The notes beneath the pieces were generated by a model. It ran no database searches, was not told the origin of the DNA, and saw only the letters and a list, made by a program, of their open reading frames with translations. This document shows positions 2,980 through 22,081 of a stretch of DNA of 64,000 nt, one piece after another. Origin of the DNA: an uncultured Acidobacteriota bacterium. GTDB taxonomy: Bacteria > Acidobacteriota > UBA6911. The translations under genes and the position numbers were made by a program. Position 1 is the first letter of the stretch. Each line of letters opens with the position of its first letter. The stretch is taken from the NCBI GenBank assembly GCA_963809485.1, contig CAWEJX010000007.1, positions 128,001-192,000 on the forward strand, in the 5' to 3' direction.

Positions 2980-3563
2980 TGCGATTTCCTCGCCGCATGC
3001 TTCATTTCCCGGTAAAGCCATCCCTTGGCCAGATCCCAGTCGCGCCACACGGTGTCGGCGGAGATCTTCAGCACTTCCGCGGCTTCCTCCAGACTTAACC
3101 CCCCGAAGAATCGAAGTTCGACCACTTGCGCCTTCCTGGGATCAACTTCCGCAAGCGCCGTCAGCGCATCGTCCAGTTCAACCAGGTTTGCATCCGGACG
3201 CAACGCGAACAGTGAGGCTTGATCCAGCGGCAGTTGGCGGAAATTGCCGCCTCGTTTCTGAGAATTTTTGGAGCGCGCATAGTGAACCAGAACCTGGCGC
3301 ATCAACTTGGCGGAGATTGCAAAGAAATGCGCGCGGTCCTGCCAATTCACTTTGGGCGCATCGAGCAGCTGCAGGTAGACCTCATTGATCAGTGCCGTGG
3401 TTTGGAGAGTGTGCCCGGCATGCTCATGCATCATGTATCGATGGGCGCGGCGGTGCAACTCATCGTGGACCAGGGGAACGAGCTTGTCCAGGGCCGCCGC
3501 TTCACCCCGGCACCACAACTGGAGCAGCTGAGTAACCTCCTGCGGAGAACATGGTTTTTCCAT
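2976..3563 (-). CDS. ECF RNA polymerase sigma factor (kinase-associated, Planctomycete/Acidobacteria type)
   Basis: VTQLL..W..G...ALDKLVPLV, HTLQTTALINEVYL, VVELRFFGGLS; translationally coupled to the kinase. Confidence 0.93.
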   Translation of the reverse strand: MEKPCSPQEVTQLLQLWCRGEAAALDKLVPLVHDELHRRAHRYMMHEHAGHTLQTTALINEVYLQLLDAPKVNWQDRAHFFAISAKLMRQVLVHYARSKNSQKRGGNFRQLPLDQASLFALRPDANLVELDDALTALAEVDPRKAQVVELRFFGGLSLEEAAEVLKISADTVWRDWDLAKGWLYREMKHAARKSQ

Positions 3564-3839
3564 GCCACCCCCTCAGAGAAAAGCCGCTATCTTTAGAATT
3601 GGTCCTAATTATACATCAAATCGCTGTGATCAGGTTTTCGGTAATCGTCTGCCGGCCGCAGAAAAGACCTCCTTTCGTTCAGAAAATTGAGTCCCGTTTG
3701 CCCATTAAGCGATTAGGGCGGCATGAGGAAGCCCCGAAGAGGAATCGCCTCAATAGCAGGCGGCGCCCGGATATCACCCGCCCCTGTTGCGATCCCGCTG
3801 GTTTGGGTTCCTGGAAATCCGAAGAAAGGGGGGTGCCCT

Positions 3840-5201: not shown

Positions 5202-5352
5202 TACGCTCGCACCCGGTTCCGGGCATGCGCCGGACCACGAGGGCCGCGCACGACACAATGAACAATGCGAACAAAATGCAAGTTGAGGTTTCAGGGCAGG
5301 GAAAAGGGGTTGCCGCAAAGCCGCCGGTCAAAAGCAATAGAGAAAGGGATCA

Positions 5353-5522
5353 CTAATTTTTTGCTATTTCTTTTTCAGCCCATGTGATAGCCGATTTCAG
5401 CAATTCGGGGATGGGCAGTTCGTACGGGCACCTGGGTTCACACTCTCCGCATTGGGTACATTCCCTCGCTTTTTCAATGAGACTGGCTGCCATCCCGTCC
5501 GCCCCAATCGCAGTTCCTCCAT
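5353..5522 (-). pseudogene. Internally deleted aldo/keto reductase with 4Fe-4S tail
   Basis: The N-terminal MEELRLGRTG is joined out of frame to the C-terminal AREC TQCGECEPRCPYELPIPELLK; the body of the gene is missing. Confidence 0.7.
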
Positions 5523-5537
5523 GCTGTTCTCCGGTCC

Positions 5538-6515
5538 TTAGGTCTCCTCGGTGTCGTCAAGTATTTTCGTGACGCCGTCTTGCACCTTAATCCTGGGATG
5601 CTGTTTTCTTCTGTTGAGAGGCTCTTTCGTGCCTTCCGCTCCGGATGGGAACAGAATCCTGAATCGCCTTAGTTCTTTGTATTTCATCATCGACTCGGCA
5701 AGCTTGGCGAAATATATCCTGGTCGATTTCTCCCGGATATCCATAGGTTCCCAGTTAACCTCAATGGCGCCCGCAGGACATACTTCCTCACAAAACCATA
5801 TATGGCACGGGCCGCAGGCTTTATGAGAGATGATAATTTTGTCATCCATGGTTATCGCATGATTGGGGCAATGATCCACGCATTCTACACATGAAGTACA
5901 TTTTCTCAGATCAACGACAGGTTTTAGTTTTTCCCAGTCTGACAGGGGAATACTCAGGTCTTTGGGGAGTTCCTCCGGACGCGGCTTGGTTCCGTACAAC
6001 TTGTCATACTTGTCTTTTCGTGGCAACCGGGGGATAAGCCCTCGCTCGCCTTTGGAAATTTTTATTGTTCTTCCCAGTATTTCCTTCCCGAATTCCTTCG
6101 CCTCCTCGATGTCGATGCTGTCAGGATGCCCATCGGTGTAGTATGGCCGGGCGATATACGGCATAAAAGCGCTGCCAAACCAATCATTCCAGCCTGTTAC
6201 CTTCAATCCCTTTTTTTTCAGCGCGGTTACCATTTCAGCGATAAAGCCGCAGGGGCACGTCCCGTGGGTACAGAACGTAAACGCGTACCTTCCTTTCAAC
6301 CGGGGCAGGTCTTTCATGAATTCAGTGACGATGGGGGGCTCCCGGTAGCCAATGGCAGGCGCGCCGATACCGATTAGTTCATAGTCGAGAAGGTCCTGGC
6401 CTTTTACCTTTTCCATGGAGACCAGATCACAGTCCCGCCCAATCCCTTGCTTAATCGCGGCCGCAATTCTCTTGGTGTTTCCTGTCATTGAATAATAAAT
6501 CACAATGCTTCTCAT
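5538..6515 (-). CDS. Flavodoxin-domain plus 4Fe-4S ferredoxin protein
   Basis: IVIYYSMTGNTKRIA flavodoxin loop; CTSCVECVDHCP and CGPC..FCEEVCP motifs; start taken at MRSIVIYY. Confidence 0.85.
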   Translation of the reverse strand: MRSIVIYYSMTGNTKRIAAAIKQGIGRDCDLVSMEKVKGQDLLDYELIGIGAPAIGYREPPIVTEFMKDLPRLKGRYAFTFCTHGTCPCGFIAEMVTALKKKGLKVTGWNDWFGSAFMPYIARPYYTDGHPDSIDIEEAKEFGKEILGRTIKISKGERGLIPRLPRKDKYDKLYGTKPRPEELPKDLSIPLSDWEKLKPVVDLRKCTSCVECVDHCPNHAITMDDKIIISHKACGPCHIWFCEEVCPAGAIEVNWEPMDIREKSTRIYFAKLAESMMKYKELRRFRILFPSGAEGTKEPLNRRKQHPRIKVQDGVTKILDDTEET

Positions 6516-6689
6516 GATACGTTTCTCCAAAATTGATGGAAACCCGGTGGCCGAAGTGGATTGAAGTCTATGAGTGACCGGGATGGGAGTCAAGGCTCGA
6601 CCTCTGCTTCCCGGGAAATGCCCGAAATCACCCGCTCCGTCAGCGGAATCCCGGCAGCATCAAGCCGCAATTGGTTGCCTTCCTCCCAT

Positions 6690-7307
6690 TCAGTACTTGC
6701 CATACTCTTTTGCAGCCTCCATCATGGCGCGCAGGTTCTCCGGATTGACCTGGCTGACCCAGGCGCCGCCCGCGAGAATAAAGCCGCCCCCTGGGGCGCA
6801 AGCTTCGATGACCTTTCGGCAATATTCCTTCACTTCCCTGGGGCCTCCGGTGACCATCAACGAGGAGGGAATATTTCCGGAGATGCAGCATGTCCTCCCT
6901 AGAATCGTCTTGGCTTTGGCCATGTCGGTTTTGTCGAACAGCCAGCCGACGACGCCTTTCGGGAATTCGTTGACAGATTCCAGCCGTGAATCGTAGGTCC
7001 CTTCGGCGAACAGTTCCGACCGGATCCCTTCTTTATCAAGCGCATCCACGACCTTCTTGAGGGACGGCCAGTAGAACTTTTCAAACTGCTTCGGCGACAT
7101 GAAACCATCGGCGCCTTTGTGCAGAGGAAAGCCTGCCGAGTGCGCCCGAGTCGCATTTGCGGCGGCAATGGTCTGACGGATTGTAAAACCAGTGACAGCG
7201 TCGATCGCCTCCAGCAACTGCTCGGGGCGCCGGAACATGTCCATAATGATGCCCTTGGTGCCTCTTTGCTTTTTCCCTGAGTTTTGCATCTTAAGCATCA
7301 AATGCAT
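6690..7307 (-). pseudogene. Uroporphyrinogen decarboxylase/methyltransferase-family protein, 5'-truncated
   Basis: RGTKGIIMDMFRRPE, FMSPKQFEKFYWP, CISGNIP, GGGFILAGG and PENLRAM motifs; recognisable similarity begins only near 7265. Confidence 0.75.
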
Positions 7308-7460
7308 TAAGCGGATCGAGCTTCGGATTTGGCCTTGCGCTCGGAGCTTTATGGAAGAACTTGGTTATCTCTTTTACGTCGAAAGCCGGCCAAACATCAA
7401 AAACAATCGGCCCTCATGGGAATTCATGCCGATCGGCAGCCTGCTGCAACCTTTGAGTTA

Positions 7461-7532
7461 CCCGTTCCCCTTTGAGTTCCTGTCGCCAAAACCGGAAACG
7501 GGAAACGTGAAACGCGTGATCGGCAAAGGCGC
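7461..7532 (+). repeat. REP-like intergenic repeat with GAAACGN heptamers, copy 1
   Basis: Aligns by eye, with several mismatches, to the reverse complement of 10328-10400. Confidence 0.7.
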
Positions 7533-7556
7533 AAGCAAGCTTGCACACTGCAAGGA

Positions 7557-10286
7557 TCAGATGACGCCCGATTTCTTAAGCTTACTCAGTCTGGAAGGTC
7601 CAAGGCCCAGATACTTGAGATAGATGTATTCATTGTCATAGCCCACCGGGCGGCACACCCATTTTGTCCGGATGGGCGTCTCGGTCATTTTATGTTGTGC
7701 CTGAGCTACAACAACCTCGCCATAAAGAGGATCTTTAACAGGAGCAAATATTCCCCGGTCCAGCCAGTTGCTGTCTTTCATGGCTTCTTCAGGGGAACAG
7801 ACCGGCGCGAGCACCGGCGTGATAGGAGCCAGGCGGCCTTTCCTGGCGTATTCCACAGACATGTCCACCAGTTCCTGCTTGGTGTATTTGGATGTCTCCG
7901 CAAAAATCAAAGGCGCCCATTTCAATTGCTCATCCTTTTGTATAAAGGCTGTCGGAGTCGTCCAGCTCGCGGCTCCCCACTCATCCCATTTTCCCATCAT
8001 GTCGGCAAATGCCTGCCACATTTCCAACCTTAATCCGCCCAGAAAAATGGTCCCATCCCTGGTGGGCGCGAAACAGTAGACCCAGCTCGTAATATCCAGC
8101 TGTCCAAAGCGCTCGGCAATCGCTCCGTGTTCCTGATACCACAACGCAGCCCAGCCGTCAAAACAGGCGTAAGCTTCAGCCGTCGCGACATCGAGCGCCT
8201 GTCCCTCTCCGGTCATTCGCCTCCAACGCAGGGCGGCCAGAATGCCGACTGCCATAAAAGTTCCCGGTGAAGCCCAGCCGATCCAGGGGCCGGCCTTTGT
8301 GGGAACTGCCCAGGGGCATTCACTATAAGTCATACCATCGGGCATGATTTCTCCTGTAGCCGACTGTATTCCCGATCTGGCCTGAGCGACATTGTCATAA
8401 TCCGGCATCCCTCTCCGGCTCATCGGCCCGAACTGTCCATAGGCTGTGAGCGAAGCGAATATCAGCCTGGGATTGATCTCTTTTAGTTGTTCATAACCAA
8501 TCCCCCACTCATCCATGGTTCCCGGCGGATAGGTTTCTATCAGCACATCCGTCTGGCTGACCAAACCTTTAAGGATCTCCCTGGCTTCGGGCTCCTTGAG
8601 ATTCAGCGTGATGTGAAACTTGTTTCTGCCCTCCGTCAAATAGTTAAGACCTTCGCCTTTGTGGAGCATACCGTAGGGAGTGCAGGTCCTGATGAAATCG
8701 CCTTCGGGGGGTTCTATTCTCAAAACCGAGGCGCCAAATTCCGCCAGCATGGAAGAGCAGTAGCATCCTGCAAAACTCTTATAACTTAAATCCAACACGG
8801 TGATATCGTTCACGGCCTCAGGTTTTGTTTTTGCAATCCGGGGATCATCTCTCTCTCTCATCCATTCCGCGACAGCCGACTGCCTGCTTCCTGCCGAACC
8901 CGCCTTTTTTTCCTGGCGCGATCCCGCCGGGCCGGCCGCCAACTGCCATGGCGGATCTTTCGTCATGATGAGGCCCGACTTGCCATCCCAATTCTGCGGG
9001 GGCCGGCGTTTCTGGATGTCCGCCCATTTGCCCAAAGCGCCGCACTGATACAACTGCCTGATCTCGTCTCCGCTCTTCCCCAGATGATTCATCATGATGA
9101 ATTCATTATCGAAACCTACCGGCCTTGCCGACCACCGCACCCTCGGCGGCGTCTTTGACATCATCACGGGAAATTCATGGACGAAGTAGCGTCCCAGAAC
9201 AGGATCATCCACCTCGGTCATGTATCCGCGCTCGCGGAAGTGCCGGTCTTCGACGACATCCTTGTTCGTGTAGAGGCGGGATGCGGCAAAACCATGTGTC
9301 TCGGCCAATCGCTCAACTTCATCAGGGGTTTTGGTTATCGTCCAGTCAGCGATGATTCTGATCAATTCCGAGGCGTGATCTTCCTGCAGTCGGGTCAGGT
9401 GGTCTTTAAACCTGGCGTCTTCAGCCAATCCCGGTTTGCCCATCGCAATGCATAGTCCCCTGAACTCTTCCGGGGCCGGCGCTGCGATGACGACGAAGTC
9501 GCCGCCAGCGCAACAGAATGTATCGGCAGGACAGATGGATGCATCACGGTTGCCGCCGGGCATGGCGGACTTGCCGGTGATCTGCTGGTAAGGCCACACC
9601 CAGGACATTGCCCGCATAATCGCTTCGGTCTGCGACAGCTCAATAAACTGACCCTTGCCCGTCCGGTCCCGGTAATGAAGGGCCGCCATAACGGCCATTT
9701 CGCCCATCAGCGCGCCGTAACTGTCGCAAATAAAAAGGCGGCTCTTCAGCGGCGCCCGATTTGGAAAACTCGACATCCACGCATATCCGGAGAAGGCCTG
9801 GGCGGCGCCATCATTGGAAGGCCGGTTCTCCATCGCATACTGGCCCCACTGTCCAAAGCCATTTTTGGAGATGTAAATAATGCCCGGATTGATCTCCTGG
9901 ATCTGTTGATACCCGACATTCCAGCCGTCCATGACTCCCGGTCTCAGGTTATCTTCGATGATGTCGGCTCCGGACGCGAGTTCCCGGAACACCTTCTGCG
10001 CCTCAGGTTTGTGCAGATCAAGTCCCACCCAGTATTTATTGGGATTATCATGCACAAATCCGGGACCATTCTCCCTGAACAAATTCGCGAAGGGAGCCAT
10101 GTCACGATGCGTATCTCCCATAGGAGGGATTTCAAACTTGATGACTTCAGCACCCATCTCAGCCAGGAAAGCCGATCCCAAAGGACCCAGGATAAGAGTG
10201 CAAACCTCCAGCACCCTGATTCCCTTTAACGGCAAAGGCTTGGAGTGCTTCTTTTCTCTATAGTCCGTCCACGTTTTTTCTGCCAT
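7557..10286 (-). CDS. Fused two-domain class III (CaiB/BaiF) CoA transferase
   Basis: Two complete units: LKGIRVLE..AEMGAEVIKFE..GD..R, and VNDITVLDLS..AEFGASVLRIEPPEGD..R; each has a GFGQWG/AYGQFGP and a DxxAQAxSG motif. Confidence 0.92.
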   Translation of the reverse strand: MAEKTWTDYREKKHSKPLPLKGIRVLEVCTLILGPLGSAFLAEMGAEVIKFEIPPMGDTHRDMAPFANLFRENGPGFVHDNPNKYWVGLDLHKPEAQKVFRELASGADIIEDNLRPGVMDGWNVGYQQIQEINPGIIYISKNGFGQWGQYAMENRPSNDGAAQAFSGYAWMSSFPNRAPLKSRLFICDSYGALMGEMAVMAALHYRDRTGKGQFIELSQTEAIMRAMSWVWPYQQITGKSAMPGGNRDASICPADTFCCAGGDFVVIAAPAPEEFRGLCIAMGKPGLAEDARFKDHLTRLQEDHASELIRIIADWTITKTPDEVERLAETHGFAASRLYTNKDVVEDRHFRERGYMTEVDDPVLGRYFVHEFPVMMSKTPPRVRWSARPVGFDNEFIMMNHLGKSGDEIRQLYQCGALGKWADIQKRRPPQNWDGKSGLIMTKDPPWQLAAGPAGSRQEKKAGSAGSRQSAVAEWMRERDDPRIAKTKPEAVNDITVLDLSYKSFAGCYCSSMLAEFGASVLRIEPPEGDFIRTCTPYGMLHKGEGLNYLTEGRNKFHITLNLKEPEAREILKGLVSQTDVLIETYPPGTMDEWGIGYEQLKEINPRLIFASLTAYGQFGPMSRRGMPDYDNVAQARSGIQSATGEIMPDGMTYSECPWAVPTKAGPWIGWASPGTFMAVGILAALRWRRMTGEGQALDVATAEAYACFDGWAALWYQEHGAIAERFGQLDITSWVYCFAPTRDGTIFLGGLRLEMWQAFADMMGKWDEWGAASWTTPTAFIQKDEQLKWAPLIFAETSKYTKQELVDMSVEYARKGRLAPITPVLAPVCSPEEAMKDSNWLDRGIFAPVKDPLYGEVVVAQAQHKMTETPIRTKWVCRPVGYDNEYIYLKYLGLGPSRLSKLKKSGVI

Positions 10287-10327
10287 GGCGATGGTCAGCC
10301 CTCCATTGTCTGTTTTGCGTGCGAAGC

Positions 10328-10400
10328 GCGCCTTTGCCGTGCACGCGTTTCGCGTTTCCGGTTTCCCGTTTTCAAATACAGGATCTCAACGGGAAACGGG
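10328..10400 (-). repeat. REP-like intergenic repeat, copy 2, inverted relative to 7461-7532
   Basis: Followed by the REP-type hairpin AAAAGCGGCGGGAAGCTGCCGCACTC at about 10407-10432. Confidence 0.7.
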
Positions 10401-10584
10401 AAATCCAAAAGCGGCGGGAAGCTGCCGCACTCAAAACATCGCTCAAAAATCCTTTGCTGCACCTAAAATTCGCCGCATCGTCCGAGCTGCCGCTTCCCTT
10501 GCGCTTTGCCACAAGCCGGCACCGACACATCGGGCGCGGTCGTGTGCTCCCGGATGGCAGCGGCGGCAGGTCTGTGGATATCAG

Positions 10585-10977
10585 CTATTTTGTCGACGAA
10601 AAAGCGGCGGATCTATTTTCCTGTCCACGGACGCACCGCACGCGATAGGCGCTGCTTTTATAGTAGCTAAGGATATAGGCCCCATCAAACATGACGATCC
10701 AGGCGCTATAGGTGTTCGGAGCGAATGTTGTTGACGACCAGTAGCTCAGAGTATCCCTGAAGGGAACCTCTTCCCGCACAGTCGGGCGCATTCTCTCAAA
10801 TAGGGTTTTTCGATCGATCAGAGTTTCAAGCTCAGCCGCCGTCGGCAATCGCCAATCATTCCTGCCGTCCAGCGTCAACGACCGCGCGTACTCCCGGGCT
10901 TCGTACCAGGTCATTTCCCCCGGGGAATCGAGCTGCCACTCCAATCCGGTTTCCGGGTCCTTCCACGTCAGCATCAT
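10585..10977 (-). CDS. DUF1566-type protein
   Basis: DPETGLEWQ, MTWYEA, DWRLPTAAEL, YWSST and YRVRCVR motifs. Confidence 0.85.
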   Translation of the reverse strand: MMLTWKDPETGLEWQLDSPGEMTWYEAREYARSLTLDGRNDWRLPTAAELETLIDRKTLFERMRPTVREEVPFRDTLSYWSSTTFAPNTYSAWIVMFDGAYILSYYKSSAYRVRCVRGQENRSAAFSSTK

Positions 10978-11041
10978 GATCAATAGTCAAAGGAGCAGGA
11001 ACGAATGTCCGCGGGGAACACCGGGGGCTGTTCCTCTCCTG

Positions 11042-12958
11042 TTACGGGACGATTCTTTGCAGCCCCTGATCGATACCGCTCGGGAAGGTGGACTCATCTC
11101 CCCAATAAATGCAATGGGCCGGGCAAGCCCAGGTGCATGCCGGAGCTTCGTTTCTGCCGCGCTTCTCAACGCAAAGGTCGCACTTTACCGCTTTCAGGGT
11201 CAGGTGGTTGAACTGCATGACGCCGTATGGGCAGGCCTGCACGCAGGAAGTGCCGCAGGTAATGCATCGCTTCGCTTCCTGCAGAGCAGCCTCTTCCGTA
11301 AGCCCGAGCTGAACTTCATCGGAGCCCATCCGTTCCCGGGGCGGCAACCAGGGGACCTGAACGCGAGGCGCCGGATCATACTTTTCCTTCTGCGGTTGTG
11401 TGATAGGCGTCAGCTTTGCATCTCTCGCTTCTCTGCCCGTGTAAAGATCCAGACCTCTCAGATATCGATCGATGGAAACGGAGGCTTCTTTCCCGCAGCC
11501 GATGGCCTCCACGACGGTCTTGGGTCCATAACAGGCATCCCCGCCTGCGAAGACACCAGGAATCGCCGTTTCCAGCGTTATGGGATCGACTACAAACTGG
11601 CCCGCTTCGCTGGTTGCAATGCCTTGTTCCTTCGCAAAGGCTATGTCCGCCGCCTGGCCAATAGCGACAATGACCGTGTCGGCCTCCAGCAGGGTCAGAT
11701 CCGCCTCATTGTATTTGGGACTGAAGGCGCCCTTTTCATCAAATACTGAAACGCAACGTTTGAATTCAATCCCGAACAGCCGGCTGTCTTTTTGCAAAAA
11801 CCTATTCGGCCCAAGGCCGTTGACAATCTTAATTCCTTCCTCGATTGCCTCGTTGATCTCGCGTTCCCATGCAGGCATCTCAGCGCGCTGCTCCAGAGCT
11901 GCGAGCGTGACCTCGGCTGCGCCTCTGCGGATTGCCGTCATTGCGACGTCCATGGCTACATTGCCGCCGCCCACGACAATGACTTTGCGCCCGAGCGAAA
12001 CAGGAATTCCCAAAGACACATCGCGGAGAAAATCTATCCCGTTCACTACCCCGGGCATATCTTCGTTGGCCACATTCAATCGGATGTTCTGATGAAGGCC
12101 TGTCGCCAGAAAGAAAGCTTTGTACCCTTCCTTCTTAAGGCTCTCGAAGGTCACATCTTTGCCGAAGGTCACTCCGGTTCTGATTTCCACGCCCATCTTC
12201 TTGATCACACCGATGTCGTTGGCCAGCGTTTTTCTGGGAAGGCGATAGAGCGGGATTCCGACGGCCATCATGCCGCCGGCGACCGGGAGCTTTTCGAACA
12301 CCGTCGTCCTGTATCCGTTCTTGGCAAGGAAATAGGCTGCTGCGAGTCCGGCCGGACCGGAGCCGGCAATGGCTACCTTTGCCTCTCTCGTCTGGTTAAT
12401 TTTGGGCACATACGCGTCGCCGTTCGCGCGATCCTGATCGGCCAAAAACCTCTCGATGGAACGGATGGATACCGGGTCATCAATCTGTTTCCGATTGCAG
12501 TCTGTTTCGCACGGGAAGGTGCAGACTCTGCCGCAGATGGACGGGAACGGGCTGGTTTCCTTCAGCAGCCGCAGCGCTTCCTGGTATTTGCTCCTCGCCA
12601 CGAGCCCGATGAATCCCTGGATATCGTTTCCTGCCGGGCAATTGAATTTACATGGAGAGGTTTGCTGCTTCTCCGCTCCCGACTTGCCGGTCACGGCATT
12701 GCAGCCATTGCATTTTTCAGGATCTTGAAGCACGACGCCGGTTTCCGGATCTCTCCGGATGGCTTCTTCCGGACAAGACAGCGCACAAGGTGCATCTTCG
12801 CAATGGTGACAGTAATACTGCATGAACAACGGCGCCCTTTCCAAAACCTTTACCACCCTCGGGCCGACCGGAAGCCCGTGCTCCTGCTTGCATGCGACCT
12901 CGCAGGTGTGGCAACCGCAGCAATCCACCTGGCTGAATATCAATGATATTTTGCTCAT
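11042..12958 (-). CDS. DmsB-like Fe-S subunit with inserted GltD-like FAD/NAD(P)H oxidoreductase module
   Basis: N-terminal CCGCHTCEVAC and CHHCEDAPC; central PCKFNCP, CGRVC..PCE..CNR, GSGPAGL and GGGNVAMD; C-terminal CVQACPYG, KCDLC and PACTWACP. Start MSKISL overlaps the upstream stop as ATGA. Confidence 0.9.
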   Translation of the reverse strand: MSKISLIFSQVDCCGCHTCEVACKQEHGLPVGPRVVKVLERAPLFMQYYCHHCEDAPCALSCPEEAIRRDPETGVVLQDPEKCNGCNAVTGKSGAEKQQTSPCKFNCPAGNDIQGFIGLVARSKYQEALRLLKETSPFPSICGRVCTFPCETDCNRKQIDDPVSIRSIERFLADQDRANGDAYVPKINQTREAKVAIAGSGPAGLAAAYFLAKNGYRTTVFEKLPVAGGMMAVGIPLYRLPRKTLANDIGVIKKMGVEIRTGVTFGKDVTFESLKKEGYKAFFLATGLHQNIRLNVANEDMPGVVNGIDFLRDVSLGIPVSLGRKVIVVGGGNVAMDVAMTAIRRGAAEVTLAALEQRAEMPAWEREINEAIEEGIKIVNGLGPNRFLQKDSRLFGIEFKRCVSVFDEKGAFSPKYNEADLTLLEADTVIVAIGQAADIAFAKEQGIATSEAGQFVVDPITLETAIPGVFAGGDACYGPKTVVEAIGCGKEASVSIDRYLRGLDLYTGREARDAKLTPITQPQKEKYDPAPRVQVPWLPPRERMGSDEVQLGLTEEAALQEAKRCITCGTSCVQACPYGVMQFNHLTLKAVKCDLCVEKRGRNEAPACTWACPAHCIYWGDESTFPSGIDQGLQRIVP

Positions 12959-15076: not shown

Positions 15077-15147
15077 TGGATGTCCTCCTCGGCTTCCTCA
15101 TCTTAGTGAGGTTGGCCCTGGAGAGCCGTCCTCACTAATAATTCCTT

Positions 15148-16083
15148 TCAGACTTTCGGTCTCGGCAACAGCCCGGCCCTCTCAGCGATTTCCGGGATCT
15201 TTTGCTCCCATTCGATGGCCATGAGGTGAACTCCTGCAACACCTCGAATTTCTTTCAAAAGGGAGATCTGTTCGCAGGCGATCTGAATTCCTTCACCCGC
15301 TTCCCTATCCTTCGGGACACCTCGGAGACGAGACACAATTTCATCCGGAATTTCCATCCCGGGCACATCCTTCTGCATGTATTCAGCCATCCGGACGCTT
15401 TTCAGCGGCGTGATGCCGGCGATAAGGTAAACCTCCCCCAGCAGCCCCATGTCCGAAGCGCGCAGGATGAACTCACCGAATCTCGTCATGTTGTAGATGC
15501 ACTGAGTCTGTATAAAATCGGCCCCCGCCCGAATCTTCTTGGCCAGCCGACGGACGCTGAATTCGAATGGGTCCGCGAAGGGATTTATGGCCGCGCCGAT
15601 GAACATCCGCGGCGGACCGTCGATGGGTTCTCCGCCGGCAAATTTACCCTCGTCGCGCATCGTTTTGACCATCCGGATGAGCTGTATGGAATCAATGTCG
15701 AAAACTCCCATGGCATCCGGATGATCCCCGAAATCCTGATGATCCCCGGAAAGGCACACCATGTTCCGAATGCCATTGGCATAGGCCGCCAGGATATCGC
15801 TCTGCATGGCCAGCCGGTTTCGATCGCGGCAGACCATCTGATAATTCGGCTCCAGACCTTCCTGTAGCGCGATGATTGAAGCGCCCCAGCTCGACATGCG
15901 AACCATGGCGGTGGGATTATCGGTAATGTTGACGGCGTCTACGCAATTCCGAAGGTATCTTGCTTTCTCGCGGATCTTGATCGCATTGGCCCCGCGCGGC
16001 GGACCCAGCTCGCCGGTGAATGCGAATTCGCCCGACCTGAGCACTCGTTCCAGGTTGCTGCCTGATTTCATCGTCGCATTCAT
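15148..16083 (-). CDS. metF: Methylenetetrahydrofolate reductase, MetV-associated type
   Basis: TGELGPPRG, DAVNITDN, CRDRNRLAMQSD, LSGDH, KKIRAGADFIQTQ and GVHLMA motifs. Confidence 0.9.
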   Translation of the reverse strand: MNATMKSGSNLERVLRSGEFAFTGELGPPRGANAIKIREKARYLRNCVDAVNITDNPTAMVRMSSWGASIIALQEGLEPNYQMVCRDRNRLAMQSDILAAYANGIRNMVCLSGDHQDFGDHPDAMGVFDIDSIQLIRMVKTMRDEGKFAGGEPIDGPPRMFIGAAINPFADPFEFSVRRLAKKIRAGADFIQTQCIYNMTRFGEFILRASDMGLLGEVYLIAGITPLKSVRMAEYMQKDVPGMEIPDEIVSRLRGVPKDREAGEGIQIACEQISLLKEIRGVAGVHLMAIEWEQKIPEIAERAGLLPRPKV

Positions 16084-16115
16084 GGACGCAATTCGTGTGG
16101 ATTCGTGGCTGCCTT

Positions 16116-16403
16116 TCAGCCGCCGGCGGCCAGCATCATGATGGTTATGCGATCACCGTCCTGCAGGGGCCTCTGCATCTGGTCGGACCGAATCCACTCC
16201 TCTTTGTTGCGCAGGACCTTGAAGATCATGTCCAGGCTGCCGGTTTCGTCGAGAAGGAATTTTTTGACATCCTTTCCGTATTTGTCCGTTATCTGGCGGA
16301 TCAAGCCTTCAACGGTCTGGCCCGAGTAATCCATTGTGATCGTCTTGCTGCCGACCATTTTTACCACATTGGGCAGGCTGAGGAATTCGATCGTAATCGC
16401 CAT
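16116..16403 (-). CDS. MoaD/ThiS-family sulfur carrier
   Basis: About 95 aa starting MAITIEFL and ending LQDGDRITIMMLAAGG (C-terminal GG). Confidence 0.85.
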   Translation of the reverse strand: MAITIEFLSLPNVVKMVGSKTITMDYSGQTVEGLIRQITDKYGKDVKKFLLDETGSLDMIFKVLRNKEEWIRSDQMQRPLQDGDRITIMMLAAGG

Positions 16404-16909
16404 CACTGAACCTCGAGAAGCGAGGAAGCCTTCCGATCCGCGGCCTGGAGCCTCCGGGCCGCCTCCCTCCCTTTTTGCAGGCCCAGGTCCCTGGGCTCGA
16501 CAAAACTGACTGCGGCGACATCGCAGAAGCGAACGCACTGCGGCTCGCCGTCACAAAGATCGCACTTGATCACCTTTCGGTCGGTAGAGACGAAGTGCAT
16601 CGCCCCAAATGGGCATACGGACACGCAGGTGCGGCAACCGATACATTTTTCATAATCCACATCCACCCGCGCCATGTCCGCGTTGCGCGAGAGCGCTTTG
16701 GCCGGACAACCGATTACGCAGGGAGCATCCTCGCATTGCTGGCAGGATACGGGCACATAGATCCCCTCGGATTCCCATTTGATGATGCGTATCCGGCTGC
16801 GCATGGGATTGGACACGTGATCATGTTTTACGGAGCAGACAAGCTCGCACAGCCTGCATCCCGTGCACTTTTCATAATCCACTTTCAGGACTTTGCTGTT
16901 CTTTGGCAT
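16403..16909 (-). CDS. 4x[4Fe-4S] electron-transfer subunit of the AOR
   Basis: CTGCRLCELVC, CQQCEDAPC, CIGCRTCVSVCP and KCDLC motifs; directly downstream of the AOR gene. Confidence 0.9.
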   Translation of the reverse strand: MPKNSKVLKVDYEKCTGCRLCELVCSVKHDHVSNPMRSRIRIIKWESEGIYVPVSCQQCEDAPCVIGCPAKALSRNADMARVDVDYEKCIGCRTCVSVCPFGAMHFVSTDRKVIKCDLCDGEPQCVRFCDVAAVSFVEPRDLGLQKGREAARRLQAADRKASSLLEVQ

Positions 16910-16937
16910 GGACAATTTTCCTCACGGTTGCCGCCGG

Positions 16938-18878
16938 CTACAGCTGGCGGGAAGGCTCGCCCTCCAGTCCAAGCCTTTTCAATGTTTCCGGTTTGGGAAT
17001 GCCGTCTTGATCGAGCCCTTTGTGCGCGTAAAACTCGTCCAGCATTTGGACAAACTTATCTTTGTCGATCTTTATTCCCACCACGCCGGGAGCTCCCCGC
17101 AGGCAGGGCTCATCAAAATAGCGATGGCTGAGCGTGTCTCCCTTTCTCGGGTCGTTGCGCGTCAAGCCTTCGCGCAGGTTGAAAAGCCTTTCAATCATGT
17201 TGCATCGCTCGGCTACCTCCCAAATCTGAACCGGCGATAATTCCAGCCCTGTGTTATAAAAAACCACCTTGGCCCAGTCCTCGAAGTTGGGATGCGTCGC
17301 TCCCAGAAACACCGTGTGATATTTGCATATGCCGAGGCAATCGACCGCCATGTAGCAGTTTTCCTGCCAGAAGACCTGCCAGGATTTGCCCTCGTAGGCT
17401 GTGTGCTCCGAGCTCAGCGGTCCATCATAAGGAACCGGGCTCGAATAGATCTTCCTCAGCACAGGCTCCGGCAGGTGATAGAGATCGATGGCCGGCCGGC
17501 TTCTCAGGTGATCGGACCCGCGCGATGCTGTGGCGATATTCAACGCCAGGGCCGGAGTCGCGCGCTCGTCGGAGTGCAGGTTGTTCATCCCCTTGACCTG
17601 GACCAGGTAGTCGAAGGAATTCTTGCCGATTTTTTCGGAAGCCGGGATCCCGCCGTCGGCCAGAGTATCTCCGAGCCAACCCTTCCGGAAACAAATGCGG
17701 TGGATCATCTCGATGAGCGCTTCATCATTGCCGAAGCGCAGATCGAGTCCGCCAGTTTGCTCCTTCGTCAGGATGCCGAGCTCGAACAGCTCCATGGCCC
17801 ACGAGATCATGCTCCCCGTCTCCAGGTTGTCCAGGCCATATTGATTGACAAGATAATTGCCTGTCATGACGGTCTCGGCATTCCGGCAATCCGGCTCCGC
17901 GCCGAATGCGCCCAGAGACGTGTACTCAGGGCCTTCATCGTATTTCCCGGCGTAAGGGCCTGAGGGCAGCTTGTAGCGGGCGCGGCAGTGGACCTGGCAC
18001 GCATAGCAGCTGGCCATGTGGTAGGGGCCCATGGTTGCCGTCGCGATCTCATCCAGGTGCTCCGGCTCGATATCATCGGCATATTCGCACTGGTTATATT
18101 GGAAATTGCGCGAGCGCACACCGCCCCAGGAGTTGGTCGCGCCCCAAATGAAGGGCGTTCCCAAAGTCCCTTGCGTCTGGTTGACTTTGGAGCTCGTGAT
18201 CTGATCGATAAACCTCTTGTTATATTCGAGGGCTTCGACAGGACGGGCGATCTTAATATCCATGGAGCCGCGGGCGGCAACCGCCTTGAGATTCTTGGAA
18301 CCCATAATGCAGCCCATGCCGGTCCTGCCGCCGGAATTTTTGATGCCGGTCCTGACGTTCGCAAACCGCACCAGGTTTTCTCCGGCAGGGCCGATCACAA
18401 GGCTTTTTACTTCAGGATCCGCAAGCTCTTCTTGAATAGCCCATTGGGTTTCGGTTGCGCTTTTGCCCCAGATATTCTTCGCGTCCCGGATCTCGATCTC
18501 GCCATCATGGATAAAAAGGTAAACAGGCTTAGCTGCTTTGCCCCTGATGACCAGGTGGTGGAATCCGGCCCATGCAAGCTCGGGAGCAAAAAAGCCCCCC
18601 ATGTTCGTGGAACCCAGGAAGCCTGTCAGCGCCGATTTGGCCATGACATGCGTACGTGTCGTGGCGGAAGCGCATGTGGCCGTGAGAAGCCCGCCGGAAA
18701 TCAGCAGGACATTATCCGGTCCCAGCGGGTCGACTCCTTGGGTGGTGTGGTTGTAGAGCAGATAGGCATCCAATCCTCGTCCGCCGAGAAATCTCCTGCG
18801 AATTTCCAAAGGGATCGGCTTGACCTGAATATCGCCGGTTGTCAGATCGATATAGGCGATCTTTCGATTGAGTGCCAT
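16938..18878 (-). CDS. Aldehyde:ferredoxin oxidoreductase family (W-pterin) enzyme
   Basis: FLGGRG, GRTGMGCIMGSKNLKAV, CYACQVHC, EGPEY, RGSDH, DCLGIC and GIPKPETLKRLGL motifs. Confidence 0.93.
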   Translation of the reverse strand: MALNRKIAYIDLTTGDIQVKPIPLEIRRRFLGGRGLDAYLLYNHTTQGVDPLGPDNVLLISGGLLTATCASATTRTHVMAKSALTGFLGSTNMGGFFAPELAWAGFHHLVIRGKAAKPVYLFIHDGEIEIRDAKNIWGKSATETQWAIQEELADPEVKSLVIGPAGENLVRFANVRTGIKNSGGRTGMGCIMGSKNLKAVAARGSMDIKIARPVEALEYNKRFIDQITSSKVNQTQGTLGTPFIWGATNSWGGVRSRNFQYNQCEYADDIEPEHLDEIATATMGPYHMASCYACQVHCRARYKLPSGPYAGKYDEGPEYTSLGAFGAEPDCRNAETVMTGNYLVNQYGLDNLETGSMISWAMELFELGILTKEQTGGLDLRFGNDEALIEMIHRICFRKGWLGDTLADGGIPASEKIGKNSFDYLVQVKGMNNLHSDERATPALALNIATASRGSDHLRSRPAIDLYHLPEPVLRKIYSSPVPYDGPLSSEHTAYEGKSWQVFWQENCYMAVDCLGICKYHTVFLGATHPNFEDWAKVVFYNTGLELSPVQIWEVAERCNMIERLFNLREGLTRNDPRKGDTLSHRYFDEPCLRGAPGVVGIKIDKDKFVQMLDEFYAHKGLDQDGIPKPETLKRLGLEGEPSRQL

Positions 18879-18879
18879 G

Positions 18880-19137
18880 CTACTTTTCCTCCTCCCGCTT
18901 CTTCAGGGCTTCCTCGGCAAGCTTTCGATTGGCGTCCCATACGGGTCCTCGGATCCTTGGAAAGTCCGGACGAATCCAATGAACGCGAAACTCCATGCCG
19001 CACGCGGGGCACTTCACCTGTGCCTGTCCGGCCTCCGGCTGCAGGCGTCCCATGCAACTTGGGTTGTGGCATCGGAATTGTCCGTAGGTCCTTGTTTTTC
19101 TCAAAGCCTCGGCGGTCGAAACATCCTCATCAGCCAT
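18880..19137 (-). CDS. Small Zn-ribbon-like protein, first gene of the AOR operon
   Basis: CHNPSC...CPACG; GGAGAGGGAG RBS; stop lies immediately before the AOR start. Confidence 0.7.
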   Translation of the reverse strand: MADEDVSTAEALRKTRTYGQFRCHNPSCMGRLQPEAGQAQVKCPACGMEFRVHWIRPDFPRIRGPVWDANRKLAEEALKKREEEK

Positions 19138-19260
19138 GGCTCCCTCTCCGGCAGTTCATTATGAAGAACAAAATTGAAATCACAATAACATGGCCGATCC
19201 CGGCCATGTCAATAATAAAATAATTTATGGAAATAACTTAATAAATGCAATAATTTGTTG

Positions 19261-19319
19261 TTGACACAAATCCATATCCTGATTCATATTCTCATTCCAG
19301 ATCGTTCTCTATAGAAAAC
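19261..19319 (+). promoter_or_regulatory. Sigma70-type promoter and IclR-like palindromic operator
   Basis: TTGACA at 19261 and CATATT at 19285; near-perfect palindrome GTTCTCTA|TAGAAAAC at 19304-19319; AT-rich divergent intergenic region. Confidence 0.55.
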
Positions 19320-19339
19320 AATTGCCGGAGCAAGTCCGC

Positions 19340-20113
19340 ATGTACCAGGCGCCGATTGTTACCAAAGCTTTCCGTATCCTTGAGCTTGTCGCCAGGAAGG
19401 ACAAGCTGATGACAATCAGCGATCTCTCCCGGGAATTGGGTATCAATAAAAGCACTGTACACGGGATTGCCCACGCTCTTGAAAAAGCAGGCGCCATCGT
19501 CCGGGACAAAAAGACAAAGCGCTATATGCTCGGCATGGCGCTTTTTGAATTGGCCCGGGCAGGCTACGTTCGAATCGATCTTAAAGATATTGCCAGGCCG
19601 GTCATGGAAGATTTGATGCGATCGACGCAGCAGTCGGTGTTCCTGGGCATCCGCTCCGGCGATCACGTTTCCATCATAGATATCGTCGAGTCGGCGCAGG
19701 ATTTAAAGATCACCTCTCCTGTAGGGACACGGGTGCCTTTGTTGGCGGGAGCCATCGGGAAAGCATTCCTCGCATTAATGGAAGAAGGCCAGGCCGCCTC
19801 ATTGATACGCACTCTGGGCCTGCGCAGGTATACGGAAAATACGATTACGGACCCGAACCTCTATATGAAGAAAGTCGGCGAGGCGCGCGCAGCGGGATAC
19901 GGGCTGGACGATGAAGAATATATTCAGGGGGTCCGGGCCGTTGCTGCGGTCATTCAAAATTCCGGGCCGCGGCCGTCGGCCGTCTGGGTGGTCGGATTCA
20001 GTCCGAGCATGAGTGCGGAAAAGCTGCCGGTGATTGCGCTGGAAACGAAACGCACGGCAGAGGCAATTTCTCAGAAGATCGATCTCCGCTCGTACAACGG
20101 ACAGGAACGATGA
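19340..20113 (+). CDS. IclR-family transcriptional regulator
   Basis: KAFRILE..ISDLSRELGINKSTVHGI HTH; AGAIGKAFL and GYGLDDEEYIQGVRAVA motifs. Confidence 0.92.
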   Translation: MYQAPIVTKAFRILELVARKDKLMTISDLSRELGINKSTVHGIAHALEKAGAIVRDKKTKRYMLGMALFELARAGYVRIDLKDIARPVMEDLMRSTQQSVFLGIRSGDHVSIIDIVESAQDLKITSPVGTRVPLLAGAIGKAFLALMEEGQAASLIRTLGLRRYTENTITDPNLYMKKVGEARAAGYGLDDEEYIQGVRAVAAVIQNSGPRPSAVWVVGFSPSMSAEKLPVIALETKRTAEAISQKIDLRSYNGQER

Positions 20114-20505
20114 TCTATTTCCAGGTAAACAGCAAGTGCAACGGGTGTCTTGCCTGTGTCCGGAACTGTCCGGCCCGGGCGCTTGATGCCAAAGAAGCAG
20201 GAGGCACGCAGACGCTGTTCCATAACATGGCGCTCTGCGCGCGATGCGCCACCTGTTGGAGAATATGCCCCGAGCATGCGATCGAGTTCCAGCACCTGCT
20301 CCAAAACCAATGGGACGAAGTCGTCACACATTACCTTGTGCGATGCAAAGAATGCGGTGAAGTCGTCTACGCGGAGCGCTTGAAGGACAGCCTCGAGCCG
20401 AAAGTCCGCGAACTGGTCGAACCGCTGTGTACCCGCCACAAGCTGGAGCGGCAGGCAAAGGCACTGGCAGGGAGGCAGCGACGGGTCAGCGGGACAGCAT
20501 CATGA
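20110..20505 (+). CDS. 4Fe-4S dicluster protein with an additional Cys-rich tail
   Basis: CNGCLACVRNCP, CARCATCWRICP and CKECG..LCTRH. Confidence 0.85.
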   Translation: MIYFQVNSKCNGCLACVRNCPARALDAKEAGGTQTLFHNMALCARCATCWRICPEHAIEFQHLLQNQWDEVVTHYLVRCKECGEVVYAERLKDSLEPKVRELVEPLCTRHKLERQAKALAGRQRRVSGTAS

Positions 20506-21197
20506 TCGTAGGAGATTTGAAAGAGATCAGCGAGATTGCATCTTCCATCGCCGGCTACTCGAAGGTGCTGGTTCTCGGATGCGGCGGCTGCGTGACTGTT
20601 TGCAGGTCGGGCGGCGACGCCGAAGCCCAGGATCTGTCGCGCCGGCTTTCCCATCCCGAGCATTACAGGGGTGTGCCTCCCGAGCTTATGGTTGGCACCA
20701 TCGAGAGGCAATGCGAGAATGATCTGATCAAATCCTTCCTCCAGATTCCCGAAGGCACCGACGCGATTTTGTCCCTGGCGTGCGGAGCCGGAGTGCAGAT
20801 TGTCGCCGATGCTTTCGAGCCGTTGCCTGTTCTTCCGGCGCTAACCACCACTTTTATGGGTGGAGCCGATGAACCCGGCGTCTGGCGCGAAAAGTGCCGT
20901 GGATGCGGAGACTGTCTGCTGGCCTGCACGGCGGGCATTTGCCCGATTACGCTTTGTGCGAAGCGCCTGCTGAATGGTCCCTGTGGAGGTTCCCGCGGCG
21001 GATACTGCGAAGTGGGATCGGAAACTCCTTGCGCCTGGGCAAAAATTTACGTGCGGCTCGAAAAGCAAGGCCGGCTGCATCTGCTGGACGAGATCCGAAT
21101 GCCGCGCGACTGGCGCAAAGCCGGCTATCGGACGGCGCGGGAGCGCCGGCGGACCGGCGTGGAATTATTTGGCGGCGGTCCACATACCAATTCCTGA
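20502..21197 (+). CDS. metV: MetV-like (MTHFR small, Zn/Fe-S) subunit
   Basis: GCGGCVTVC, RQCE, LACGAGVQ and CRGCGDC..GICPITLCAKRLLNGPCGG..CEV...CAW; start MIVGDL overlaps the upstream stop. Confidence 0.85.
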   Translation: MIVGDLKEISEIASSIAGYSKVLVLGCGGCVTVCRSGGDAEAQDLSRRLSHPEHYRGVPPELMVGTIERQCENDLIKSFLQIPEGTDAILSLACGAGVQIVADAFEPLPVLPALTTTFMGGADEPGVWREKCRGCGDCLLACTAGICPITLCAKRLLNGPCGGSRGGYCEVGSETPCAWAKIYVRLEKQGRLHLLDEIRMPRDWRKAGYRTARERRRTGVELFGGGPHTNS

Positions 21198-21325
21198 GAA
21201 GATTGACGATTTCATCAAGTGCCGGCTGCAATCCTCGGAAGGTGCGGGAATTGTTTTAGCGTCAGTGATTGCGTTTTGGATCATGGGCAAGACGGATGGG
21301 CTGGAAGACGATGGAGGCGTTGGCG

Positions 21326-21841
21326 ATGGATATTACTCAAGAAAAGATTTCCGCATGGATGGACATGTATTTTGCAGCGGTCCGCGAATGCATCGGCCCT
21401 CTCGAAAAGGTGCCGGAACTCGGAAAACTGTTTACAGAGGATTTTGAGTTCGTCTACTACACGCCGCCGGCAACCGCGGAGTTTACGGGAGGAAGAACTT
21501 CTCGCGAAGGACTTCTCATGCAAATGGTGCATCCCGGTCTCCGCGAGATCATTGAGCCCTGCTATTATGCGATCAACCTGGAAAAACTGATCGTTTGTGT
21601 CCGTTTCAACGACAGGACCGTGGATGAGGCGAGCGGCAAGGACATCGTGCCTCCCTTCCAGGCAAGTGCTCACTACACCCTCGTGCCGGCGGAGGACACG
21701 GGATTCAAGATCAAGCTGCTGGAATATTGGACGGAGAACCAGACTCCCGAGAACATTGCCATCACTCAGGCGGCCTGGTTCAGGAACAGCAAGCCCGCAT
21801 TCGAAAGCATCATCTTTGATTGGCTGAAAGCCAGGTACTAG
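21326..21841 (+). CDS. Hypothetical NTF2/SnoaL-like protein
   Basis: GGAGG RBS; WMDMYF..., KLFTEDFEF and a beta-rich C-terminus. The fold assignment is inferred. Confidence 0.6.
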   Translation: MDITQEKISAWMDMYFAAVRECIGPLEKVPELGKLFTEDFEFVYYTPPATAEFTGGRTSREGLLMQMVHPGLREIIEPCYYAINLEKLIVCVRFNDRTVDEASGKDIVPPFQASAHYTLVPAEDTGFKIKLLEYWTENQTPENIAITQAAWFRNSKPAFESIIFDWLKARY

Positions 21842-21856
21842 ACATCGCGTAGCCTC

Positions 21857-22081
21857 TTGAAGACCGGCGTGACCGGCGGCTTTAGCACTTTTATCGGCTT
21901 CTCGACAAAGAAACGCCGCGGCGCGATCGTTCTCGCTAGCTTTCTTTCACGGTCCGGCGGCGGAGGGCCGGTCGATGGGACTGTACTCAATATCGGTATG
22001 GAATTGATCAATCCAGGTTTTAATCTGGGCAATGTTGACGCGCTGTATCGCTGGATCGGCTTACTCATCCGGCAGCGTTGA
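21857..22081 (+). pseudogene. C-terminal remnant of a serine hydrolase/beta-lactamase-family gene
   Basis: KTGVTGGFSTFIGF...RRGAIVLA resembles the conserved (H/K)xG-xT-GGF C-terminal segment; no upstream part is present. Confidence 0.5.

Follow-up and report, generated by a model that had tools for sequence, protein, structure and literature searches.

A non-canonical clade of the aldehyde oxidoreductase family repeatedly linked to MetVF-type methylene-tetrahydrofolate reductase genes in an uncultured Acidobacteriota bacterium and other anaerobes

Introduction

The tungsten-containing oxidoreductases (WORs) of the aldehyde oxidoreductase (AOR) family form 92 clades, and a physiological role is known for only a few of them (PMC13328260). 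According to section 11 of this classification, WorS and AorA act as the electron wire in the solved WOR complexes, and BamB shows that the family extends beyond aldehyde substrates; its section 5 reports that Thr243, Glu313, Tyr427 and His448 are conserved in most of the aldehyde-oxidising members (PMC13328260). Here, we describe a gene cluster of an uncultured Acidobacteriota bacterium in which an AOR-family gene stands together with genes for a methylene-tetrahydrofolate (methylene-THF) reductase (MTHFR) of the MetVF type. The cluster lies in a stretch of 64,000 nucleotides (assembly GCA_963809485.1, contig CAWEJX010000007.1, positions 128,001 to 192,000), hereafter called the window; coordinates are counted from its first letter.

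The MetVF enzyme purified from Clostridium ljungdahlii accepts reduced ferredoxin as electron donor and does not accept NAD(P)H; its physiological donor is described as unsettled, and the in vivo electron partners of MetVF-type reductases are an open question of bioenergetics (PMC8760232). A further gene of the cluster encodes an enzyme with a bis-pyranopterin guanine dinucleotide cofactor (bis-PGD). In this group, catechol dehydroxylases are described as closest to acetylene hydratase, and their soluble Gordonibacter forms (Dodh type) as having no twin-arginine translocation (TAT) signal and a small 4Fe-4S partner (PMC7028382). The main text of the 2026 WOR classification does not mention MetF or methylene-THF reductase, which its supplementary neighbourhood tables may list (PMC13328260), and a MetVF partner is absent from the WOR classes as published there. 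Among the papers returned by our literature search, none joins an AOR-family enzyme with MetV or MetF and none describes the bis-PGD operon; a benzene paper among them names acetylene hydratase solely in its references.

A 16.5-kb run of genes (5353-21841) had been proposed, from the letters of the window, to form one catabolic route belonging to no described pathway. The second point agrees with our literature search, which gave no characterised match. However, the value of the locus lies in the conserved core that joins an AOR clade with MetVF, rather than in the 16.5-kb set first proposed. We regard the locus as a variation on known systems rather than a system of its own; its new point is the repeated link between this clade and MetVF-type reductases.

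Results and discussion

Organization of the cluster

Genes were called from a listing of open reading frames (ORFs) and from profile searches (Pfam, NCBIfam) of the window proteins. Each gene named in the original prediction was recovered at its place, except that the label 'NTF2-like' was not confirmed for the ORF at 21269-21841, which has no Pfam or NCBIfam match. The core unit (15148-21197) is a divergent pair, with genes for a Zn-ribbon protein, the AOR-family enzyme, a polyferredoxin, a MoaD-like protein and MetF in one direction and for an IclR regulator, a ferredoxin and MetV in the other; two GTTC-N8-GAAC boxes separate the arms. An add-on unit (10585-15076) follows with the bis-PGD enzyme, an Fe-S NAD(P)H flavoprotein and a DUF1566 protein, and the left end of the run holds a fused pair of class III coenzyme A (CoA) transferases, a UroD-like fragment and a flavodoxin-ferredoxin. 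Two genes of the run, those for the bis-PGD enzyme and the UroD-like protein, are damaged. The best explanation of these data, which we consider probable, is that the run is a chain of units differing in age, with no single pathway operon, and that an iron-sulfur wire in the core ties the pterin enzyme to MetVF.

An AOR clade with two replaced active-site residues

The catalytic subunit (646 residues; 16938-18878, minus strand) carries both domains of the AOR family, AFOR_N (PF02730, E = 3e-70) and AFOR_C (PF01314, E = 1.4e-99), and belongs to a non-canonical clade of these pterin enzymes. The solved structures closest to it are PfAOR (1aor, E = 6e-92), then 9mqx_D and 8c0z_A (to 2e-76), and BamB-I (4z3w) is the sixth-best solved match, a partial one (E = 1.9e-63, residues 8-425). 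When aligned to 1aor, the enzyme retains T243 and H448 and has Thr320 in place of E313 and Ser436 in place of Y427. This replacement pattern is invariant in the 80 loci of the clade that we surveyed (80/80), and the AOR paralogues that the window genome encodes on C9 and C20 retain all four residues. As two of the four reported active-site residues are replaced, aldehyde oxidation by this clade seems possible but is not assured from its sequence, and the premise of the original prediction that AORs oxidise aldehydes is unsafe for it.

The first gene of the leftward operon encodes a Zn-ribbon miniprotein of 85 residues (18880-19137, minus strand) with four Cys in its translation (Cx4C...Cx2C), for which no Pfam family scored above its cut-off. 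The AOR gene is followed by a polyferredoxin gene of the WorS/AorA type (170 residues, four Cys clusters, Fer4 families; 16403-16915, minus strand), the product of which has 9mqx_E (E = 3.7e-36) and 8c0z_C (E = 3.4e-35) as closest solved structures and matches BamC at only E = 1.9e-16. Next comes a gene for a small MoaD/ThiS-like protein resembling WorX and AorD (16116-16403, minus strand; PF02597, weak, E = 1.9e-4).

Conservation of the core across phyla

The AOR survey, with one genome per species, covered 429 related stretches, and our counts come from the best 80 loci, which are 78-90% identical and belong to Acidobacteriota, Desulfobacterota-like metagenome-assembled genomes, Aminicenantes, Fibrobacterota and others. 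As in each of our scans, neighbourhoods were counted in the best 80 loci, many of which are ended by contig edges. Two counts were made, one by tblastn E-value alone and one with identity and coverage thresholds, the latter including the 28 loci in which 4 kb or more of flanking DNA was available on either side.

By E-value alone, the polyferredoxin gene is found in 79 of the 80 loci, the Zn-ribbon gene in 78 (77 at thresholds), iclR in 57, the ferredoxin gene in 54 (some matches being weak) and metV in 38. The MoaD-like protein of the form seen here occurs in 16 loci, a second ThiS-like family in 21 and MetF in 12, the bis-PGD enzyme in 3 and the DUF1566 protein in one; the CoA transferase gave two partial matches with 31-32% identity. 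In the 28 well-flanked loci, counted with thresholds, the Zn-ribbon and polyferredoxin genes are always present (28 each), followed by iclR (25), the ferredoxin gene (18), metV (18), metF (5) and the bis-PGD gene (1). At the same thresholds the CoA transferase, the UroD-like gene, the flavodoxin and the 'NTF2' gene are found in none of the 80 loci. The core is conserved across phyla (Acidobacteriota, Desulfobacterota-like and other anaerobes), with a catalytic subunit about 80% identical. The co-conservation expected by the original prediction holds across phyla for the AOR, the ferredoxins and MetF/MetV and fails for the set as a whole. Within 41 relatives including the genome of the window, the AOR orthologue is present in 9, with 8 of the 24 other members of the genus and none of the 16 genomes of other genera having it.

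Other genes recur near this clade. A full-length EutA-family protein (PF06277, E = 1.6e-140) is encoded in 23 of the 80 loci (for example L083:5521-6951 and L102:12546-13970) and a 474-residue protein with a weak radical-SAM match in 16. In several loci, among them L049 and L053 (L053:7210-8763), the space between iclR and an extra polyferredoxin gene is taken by a second, shorter paralogue of the AOR family (477-517 residues).

Repeated link with MetV and MetF

MetF, an MTHFR-family flavoprotein of 311 residues, is encoded at 15148-16083 on the minus strand (PF02219, E = 2e-37; MTHFR half of NF006396, 224 bits). Its Glu, Asp and Gln motifs align with those of human MTHFR, and we take their roles to be those of E. 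coli MetF. On the plus strand are found the genes for a 2x[4Fe-4S] ferredoxin (131 residues, Fer4 families, C-terminal Cys2-Cys-His ribbon; 20110-20505), in which the Cys motifs are invariant across 18 orthologues, and for MetV, the Fe-S subunit of MetVF-type reductases (231 residues; 20502-21197; PF12225, E = 7.5e-34), with 13 invariant Cys across 15 orthologues. Stop-to-start overlaps join the iclR, ferredoxin and metV genes. The PF02219 and PF12225 domains place the pair in the MetVF-type MTHFR family; the adjacent metV-metF order is not seen here.

Among the sampled AOR loci, the most frequent partner is MetV together with the ferredoxin encoded before it. MetF is found in two gene orders, AOR-polyferredoxin-MoaD-MetF as in the window, and MetF-ferredoxin-MetV-Zn-ribbon-AOR-polyferredoxin; in L062, L063, L072 and L079 all six genes of the latter order are on one strand. 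A quick maximum-likelihood tree was inferred from 33 MetF sequences, after removal of five duplicates and of matches to less than 250 residues of the query; all trees of this work are of this quick kind or FastTree trees. In the MetF tree, each gene order has a group of its own (support 97 and 99), and each group is sister to MetV-MetF pairs that have no AOR linkage, which indicates that MetF was recruited twice. The partner type also follows the AOR tree, with 6 changes for MetV against 19.3 in shuffles. In the AOR tree, the Acidobacteriota copies nest within a MetV-type deltaproteobacterial group of identical gene order, and a transfer of the whole cluster is therefore indicated.

In related genomes, other MetV-MetF pairs adjoin very large Hdr-, GltD- or NuoF-like flavoproteins, so that MetVF seems to be a module able to join various electron-transfer partners. 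No other AOR paralogue of the window genome lies within 10 kb of a metV gene.

Several observations were made on MetF itself. The Desulfobacterota-like genomes G041-G043 hold 5-8 MetF paralogues each, and the giant flavoproteins near their MetV-MetF pairs are of 1402 residues (GltD and HdrA-like), 876 residues (NuoF and GltD-like) and 911 residues (double HdrA-like); the pairs of L215 (G041:C22:64000-83900) and L217 (G041:C14) stand beside such proteins. In five Desulfobacterota-like loci (L047, L054, L057, L064 and L077; for example L057:5561-6619), a gene with a homocysteine S-methyltransferase domain (PF02574) adjoins metV in the place expected for metF.

IclR regulator and its boxes

The regulator gene (19322-20113, plus strand), the stop of which overlaps the start of the next gene, encodes both domains of the IclR family (HTH_IclR, PF09339; IclR_C, PF01614), and its predicted operators lie in the divergent promoter region. 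The palindrome at 19304-19319, just 5' of iclR, had already been pointed out; it is real and conserved, and it has a twin at 19154-19169, between a promoter-like -10 and the start of the Zn-ribbon gene. Both have the form GTTC-N8-GAAC, which occurs five times in the window against 0.6 expected (0/100 shuffles reached as many). Nine intergenic regions of the Acidobacteriota type share the two palindromes, a TTGACA-type -35 for each direction and a -10, and the core of the boxes is invariant in 9/9. A scan for promoters and terminators remained at chance level: it gave 12 promoter-like sites where 9.5 were expected, and 17 terminator-like ones where the expectation was 18.8; the hairpin at 10411-10428 is accordingly given as a hint only. 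Within the promoter-like site of the Zn-ribbon/AOR operon, the spacer contains a palindrome with an 11-bp stem (19186-19211), which is common to the window and to its sibling contig L111 and is not found in the other seven aligned loci.

Comparison with described systems

We compared the core with WorSL of Acetomicrobium mobile (9mqx) and AorAB(C) of Aromatoleum aromaticum (8c0z). The AFOR_N/AFOR_C subunit, the four-cluster polyferredoxin and the MoaD-like accessory gene are shared. In contrast, the gene order here is L then S, an obligate Zn-ribbon gene stands upstream in this clade and the equivalents of Glu313 and Tyr427 are replaced. Moreover, neither an AorC-type FAD subunit gene nor WorABC genes adjoin those of the AOR and the polyferredoxin, which sets the locus apart from WOR Class III (AorABC) and Class IV (WorABCSL); MetV, the ferredoxin and MetF take that place. 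The single GltD-like flavoprotein of the locus is encoded behind the bis-PGD gene and accompanies it in other genomes.

BamB-I (4z3w) offers a precedent for non-aldehyde chemistry: in both cases, an AOR-family enzyme is followed by a ferredoxin subunit, in aromatic-degrading anaerobes. A profile search of the region 5000-22000 found no BamDEFGHI homologues, so that the locus does not belong with the Class II benzoyl-CoA reductases.

The acetogen MetVF of Clostridium ljungdahlii has the same MetF (PF02219) and MetV (PF12225), and its feeding by ferredoxin, as described for the purified enzyme, suits an Fe-S wire (PMC8760232). It differs from the present case, where metV and metF lie apart, metV is preceded by an additional ferredoxin gene, both belong to an AOR-family cluster under IclR control and the genome gave no match to a CdhC-family acetyl-CoA synthase.

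A proposed Fe-S wire between the pterin enzyme and MetVF

We infer the following mechanism. IclR would repress both operons until it binds an organic-acid ligand. The pterin enzyme would then turn over its substrate in a two-electron reaction coupled to the methylene-/methyl-THF couple, through a wire of Fe-S clusters running from the polyferredoxin to the ferredoxin, to MetV, to the flavin (FMN) of MetF and to methylene-THF. The wire would thus link a tungsten (or molybdenum) centre to MetF, and MetVF may stand where the known WOR classes have the FAD subunit AorC or WorABC. Concerning the direction, we tentatively favour, as the most likely one, a flow in which the pterin centre oxidises a low-potential substrate and methylene-THF is the electron sink. 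More speculatively, and with clear doubt, the clade, its ferredoxins and MetVF could be a new class of tungsten (or molybdenum) complex with MetVF as electron exit or entry, possibly with a non-aldehyde reaction at the pterin, tied to the folate C1 pool and co-expressed in Acidobacteriota with an NAD(P)H-linked dehydroxylase-like enzyme for plant-derived aromatic acids. A methoxy- or hydroxy-aromatic theme for the substrate is a reasonable guess.

If this were true, the complex would name one natural redox partner of the MetVF-type reductases. The clade, about 80% identical across phyla, has an altered active site and exchangeable electron-transfer partners.

Several points weigh against this mechanism. 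The direction of the electron flow is drawn only from redox potentials that we assume. The missing Glu313 and Tyr427 equivalents weaken the half of the mechanism in which an aldehyde is oxidised. In the window, metF and metV are on opposite strands and ~4 kb apart. Among the well-flanked loci, MetV is absent from 10/28, and MetF is near the AOR in only 5/28. At other loci of the clade, an Hdr-like flavoprotein or membrane Fe-S partners are found instead, which makes MetVF one option among several. Finally, the same genomes hold further MetV-MetF pairs, so that the adjacency could be hitch-hiking.

The alternative that survives best, although we find it unlikely, is a reverse or split flow of electrons. 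The pterin enzyme would be no aldehyde oxidase but the reductase of a difficult or unusual substrate, and MetVF would feed it electrons from methyl-THF oxidation or would be the downhill branch of a flavin-based bifurcation, as in BamB and its Hdr-like partners. The replacement of two catalytic residues in the 80 loci, when paralogues of the same genome keep all four, speaks for it, as do the Hdr-like flavoproteins and the membrane Fe-S protein that serve as alternative partners in the clade and the BamB precedent in section 11 of the WOR classification (PMC13328260). The genome (completeness 95.7%) is rich in methyltransferases (for example at C7:604817-605401 and C6:118917-120637), with 19 UroD-like tblastn matches and 15 matches to B12-binding domains, and gave no match to CdhC/AcsB. 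A demethylating non-acetogen fits this content, and methyl groups loaded onto THF would need oxidation in a genome with no CdhC/AcsB, which keeps a reverse flow alive. On the other side, the true AORs are closer to the enzyme (E = 6e-92) than BamB is (E = 1.9e-63, partial), the BamDEFGHI-like genes are missing from the region searched and the core itself encodes no bifurcating flavoprotein. The potential of methyl-THF is about -200 mV, and from the potentials that we presume methyl-THF would be a poor donor for a tungsten centre.

We judge it quite unlikely that the link is a mere adjacency, with MetF and MetV working as an ordinary methylene-THF reductase and the AOR-family enzyme using free ferredoxin as the Class II WORs do. 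It is true that a polyferredoxin-AOR pair by itself makes a complete Class II WOR as this class is described (PMC13328260), that MetV is lacking from 10 of the 28 well-flanked loci and that MetVF pairs of related genomes adjoin Hdr-, NuoF- or GltD-like flavoproteins. However, the cluster recruited MetF twice, from different MetF lineages, and at some loci metF, the ferredoxin gene, metV, the Zn-ribbon gene and the AOR gene form a single-strand operon. In addition, iclR, the ferredoxin gene and metV are translationally coupled and the same IclR boxes lie over both operons, other MetV-MetF pairs of the genome are available for housekeeping, and the other AOR paralogues have no MetV within 10 kb. 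With regard to these data, we prefer the Fe-S wire to a chance neighbourhood.

The bis-PGD module is an add-on

Behind metF, the minus strand encodes a bis-PGD enzyme of the acetylene-hydratase/catechol-dehydroxylase clade (12955-15076; PF04879, PF00384, PF01568) in two ORFs (12955-14280 and 14282-15076). The gene called in the original prediction is real; its frameshift, due to one extra base at 14294 (a mutation or an assembly error), had gone unnoticed. Intact orthologues with 90-99% protein identity do not have this base. Selenocysteine was rejected as the cause of the split, since the frameshift runs onto TAA and there is no in-frame TGA. We also searched sequencing runs, each of which held at most 0.20 of the sampled words; in three of them, contigs of relatives span the frameshift site: one contig of run X2 and one of run X19 (an RNA library) are without the extra base, and run X1, with a depth of 2.8, shows no gap in the region of 14294.

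The assignment to the acetylene-hydratase clade was correct: acetylene hydratase (2e7z) is the best solved relative, and the intact orthologue L034 matches it with E = 1.7e-119, the next match being at 8.8e-62. The enzyme retains the Cys motif of the [4Fe-4S] cluster and the Cys that binds the metal, and it has no TAT signal. Compared with the enzyme of Pelobacter acetylenicus, the position beside the second cluster Cys holds His instead of Asp, and the one following the ligand Cys holds Tyr instead of Ile; we take the replaced residues to be Asp13 and Ile142. Acetylene hydratase is marked by Asp13 and by the lack of a redox partner, whereas an Fe-S/NAD(P)H partner is present here. This partner, of about 640 residues (11042 to ~12961, minus strand), is a DmsB-like Fe-S subunit into which a GltD-like FAD/NAD(P)H module is inserted, with profile matches to NrfC/ArrB (residues 56-144), PRK12771 (148-674) and the C-terminal part of DmsB (616-677). 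Owing to its NAD(P)H module, a redox reaction and no hydration would be expected from the bis-PGD enzyme. Compared by description only, the Dodh-type dehydroxylases agree with it in their likeness to acetylene hydratase, the missing TAT signal and the Fe-S partner gene (PMC7028382). The appended enzyme, which is soluble, linked to NAD(P)H and related to acetylene hydratase and catechol dehydroxylases, suggests that anaerobes of soils and sediments carry out chemistry of the dehydroxylation type. The last gene of the block encodes a DUF1566/Lcl_C protein (10585-10983, minus strand; PF07603, E = 1.6e-25).

For the survey of the bis-PGD module, metagenomes were scanned with the intact L034 orthologue as query and 80 loci were kept. 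The Fe-S partner, in its full length or in a small Fe-S form, is found 3' of the enzyme in 61 of them and the DUF1566 protein in 22; 29 have an IclR gene of their own nearby, about 35% identical. An AOR cluster is present in only 2/80, L111, the sibling contig with 94% nucleotide identity, and L140. Clustering of the ORFs placed aryl-acid CoA ligase genes immediately 5' of the module in 13 and 8 loci, and genes for TRAP transporters, UbiD and UPF0261 recur, with UroD-like genes in 5/80. In the genus, the bis-PGD gene stands 3' of metF in three of the five genomes with enough downstream DNA, and the close relatives L031 and L033 are without the module. The bis-PGD module is a normally independent unit that lies behind metF only in some Acidobacteriota.

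Left end of the run and the boundary near 10598

The window is colinear with L111 from 22199 to 10598 at 94% nucleotide identity. Past this point, a 2.2-kb segment of L111 with two other ORFs replaces ~170 unrelated bases of the window, and the similarity of the CoA-transferase genes is then 80%; the break at 10598 implies that the conserved block ends with the DUF1566 gene. The segment (L111:11644-13817, against 10429-10597 of the window) encodes a membrane-like protein of 265 residues and one of 181 residues with a TAT-like signal and, by eye, Rieske-like Cys/His motifs.

Three genes of the minus strand lie beyond the boundary. The first encodes a fused alpha/beta CoA transferase of 909 residues (7557-10286; PF02515 twice, E = 3e-182), which is a class III enzyme by this family and falls below every equivalog cut-off of NCBIfam. 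The genus holds many adjacent or fused pairs of such transferases, 56-70% identical, in other contexts, and among 20 fetched loci with a pair none has the AOR, the bis-PGD enzyme, MetF or MetV. The second is a 5'-truncated pseudogene of the UroD/MtaA type (6690-7307; profile positions 155-346 of 346). It had rightly been called a remnant: its homology to a paralogue of 445 residues in the same genome is limited to the last 195 codons and starts abruptly at 7277, and it falls short of a full-length URO-D fold (about 340-445 residues). The third is an EFR1-family flavodoxin with 2x[4Fe-4S] (5538-6593; NF038196, 80 bits for a cut-off of 75). All three genes are passengers that lie past a recombination boundary near 10598.

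The earlier reading combined all genes from the flavodoxin to MetV in a single route for a methoxylated, hydroxylated or heteroaromatic acid. In this route, an aldehyde would be oxidised, the fused transferase would provide the CoA activation, O-demethylation would yield methyl-THF, the bis-PGD enzyme would carry out a dehydroxylation, and MetFV and NAD(P)H would balance the redox state. In its favour, L111 has the identical gene order including the CoA transferase, bis-PGD modules elsewhere stand directly behind aryl-acid CoA ligases, which the transferase could replace here, and near UbiD, TRAP and UroD-like genes, and the many UroD-like and B12-binding genes with no CdhC/AcsB match suit a demethylating non-acetogen. 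We nevertheless consider it improbable: the three left-end genes occur in 0/80 AOR loci at our thresholds and the bis-PGD enzyme in 3/80, the AOR cluster in 2/80 bis-PGD loci, the fetched CoA-transferase pairs never stand with the AOR, the bis-PGD enzyme or MetF/V, L111 itself differs between the DUF1566 gene and the transferase, both the UroD-like gene (a fragment) and the bis-PGD gene (frameshifted) are damaged, and L031 and L033 do without the module.

On the left flank of the cluster (2976-5201), we found genes for an extracytoplasmic function (ECF) sigma factor (PF07638) and for a protein of 492 residues with 10 Sel1 repeats.

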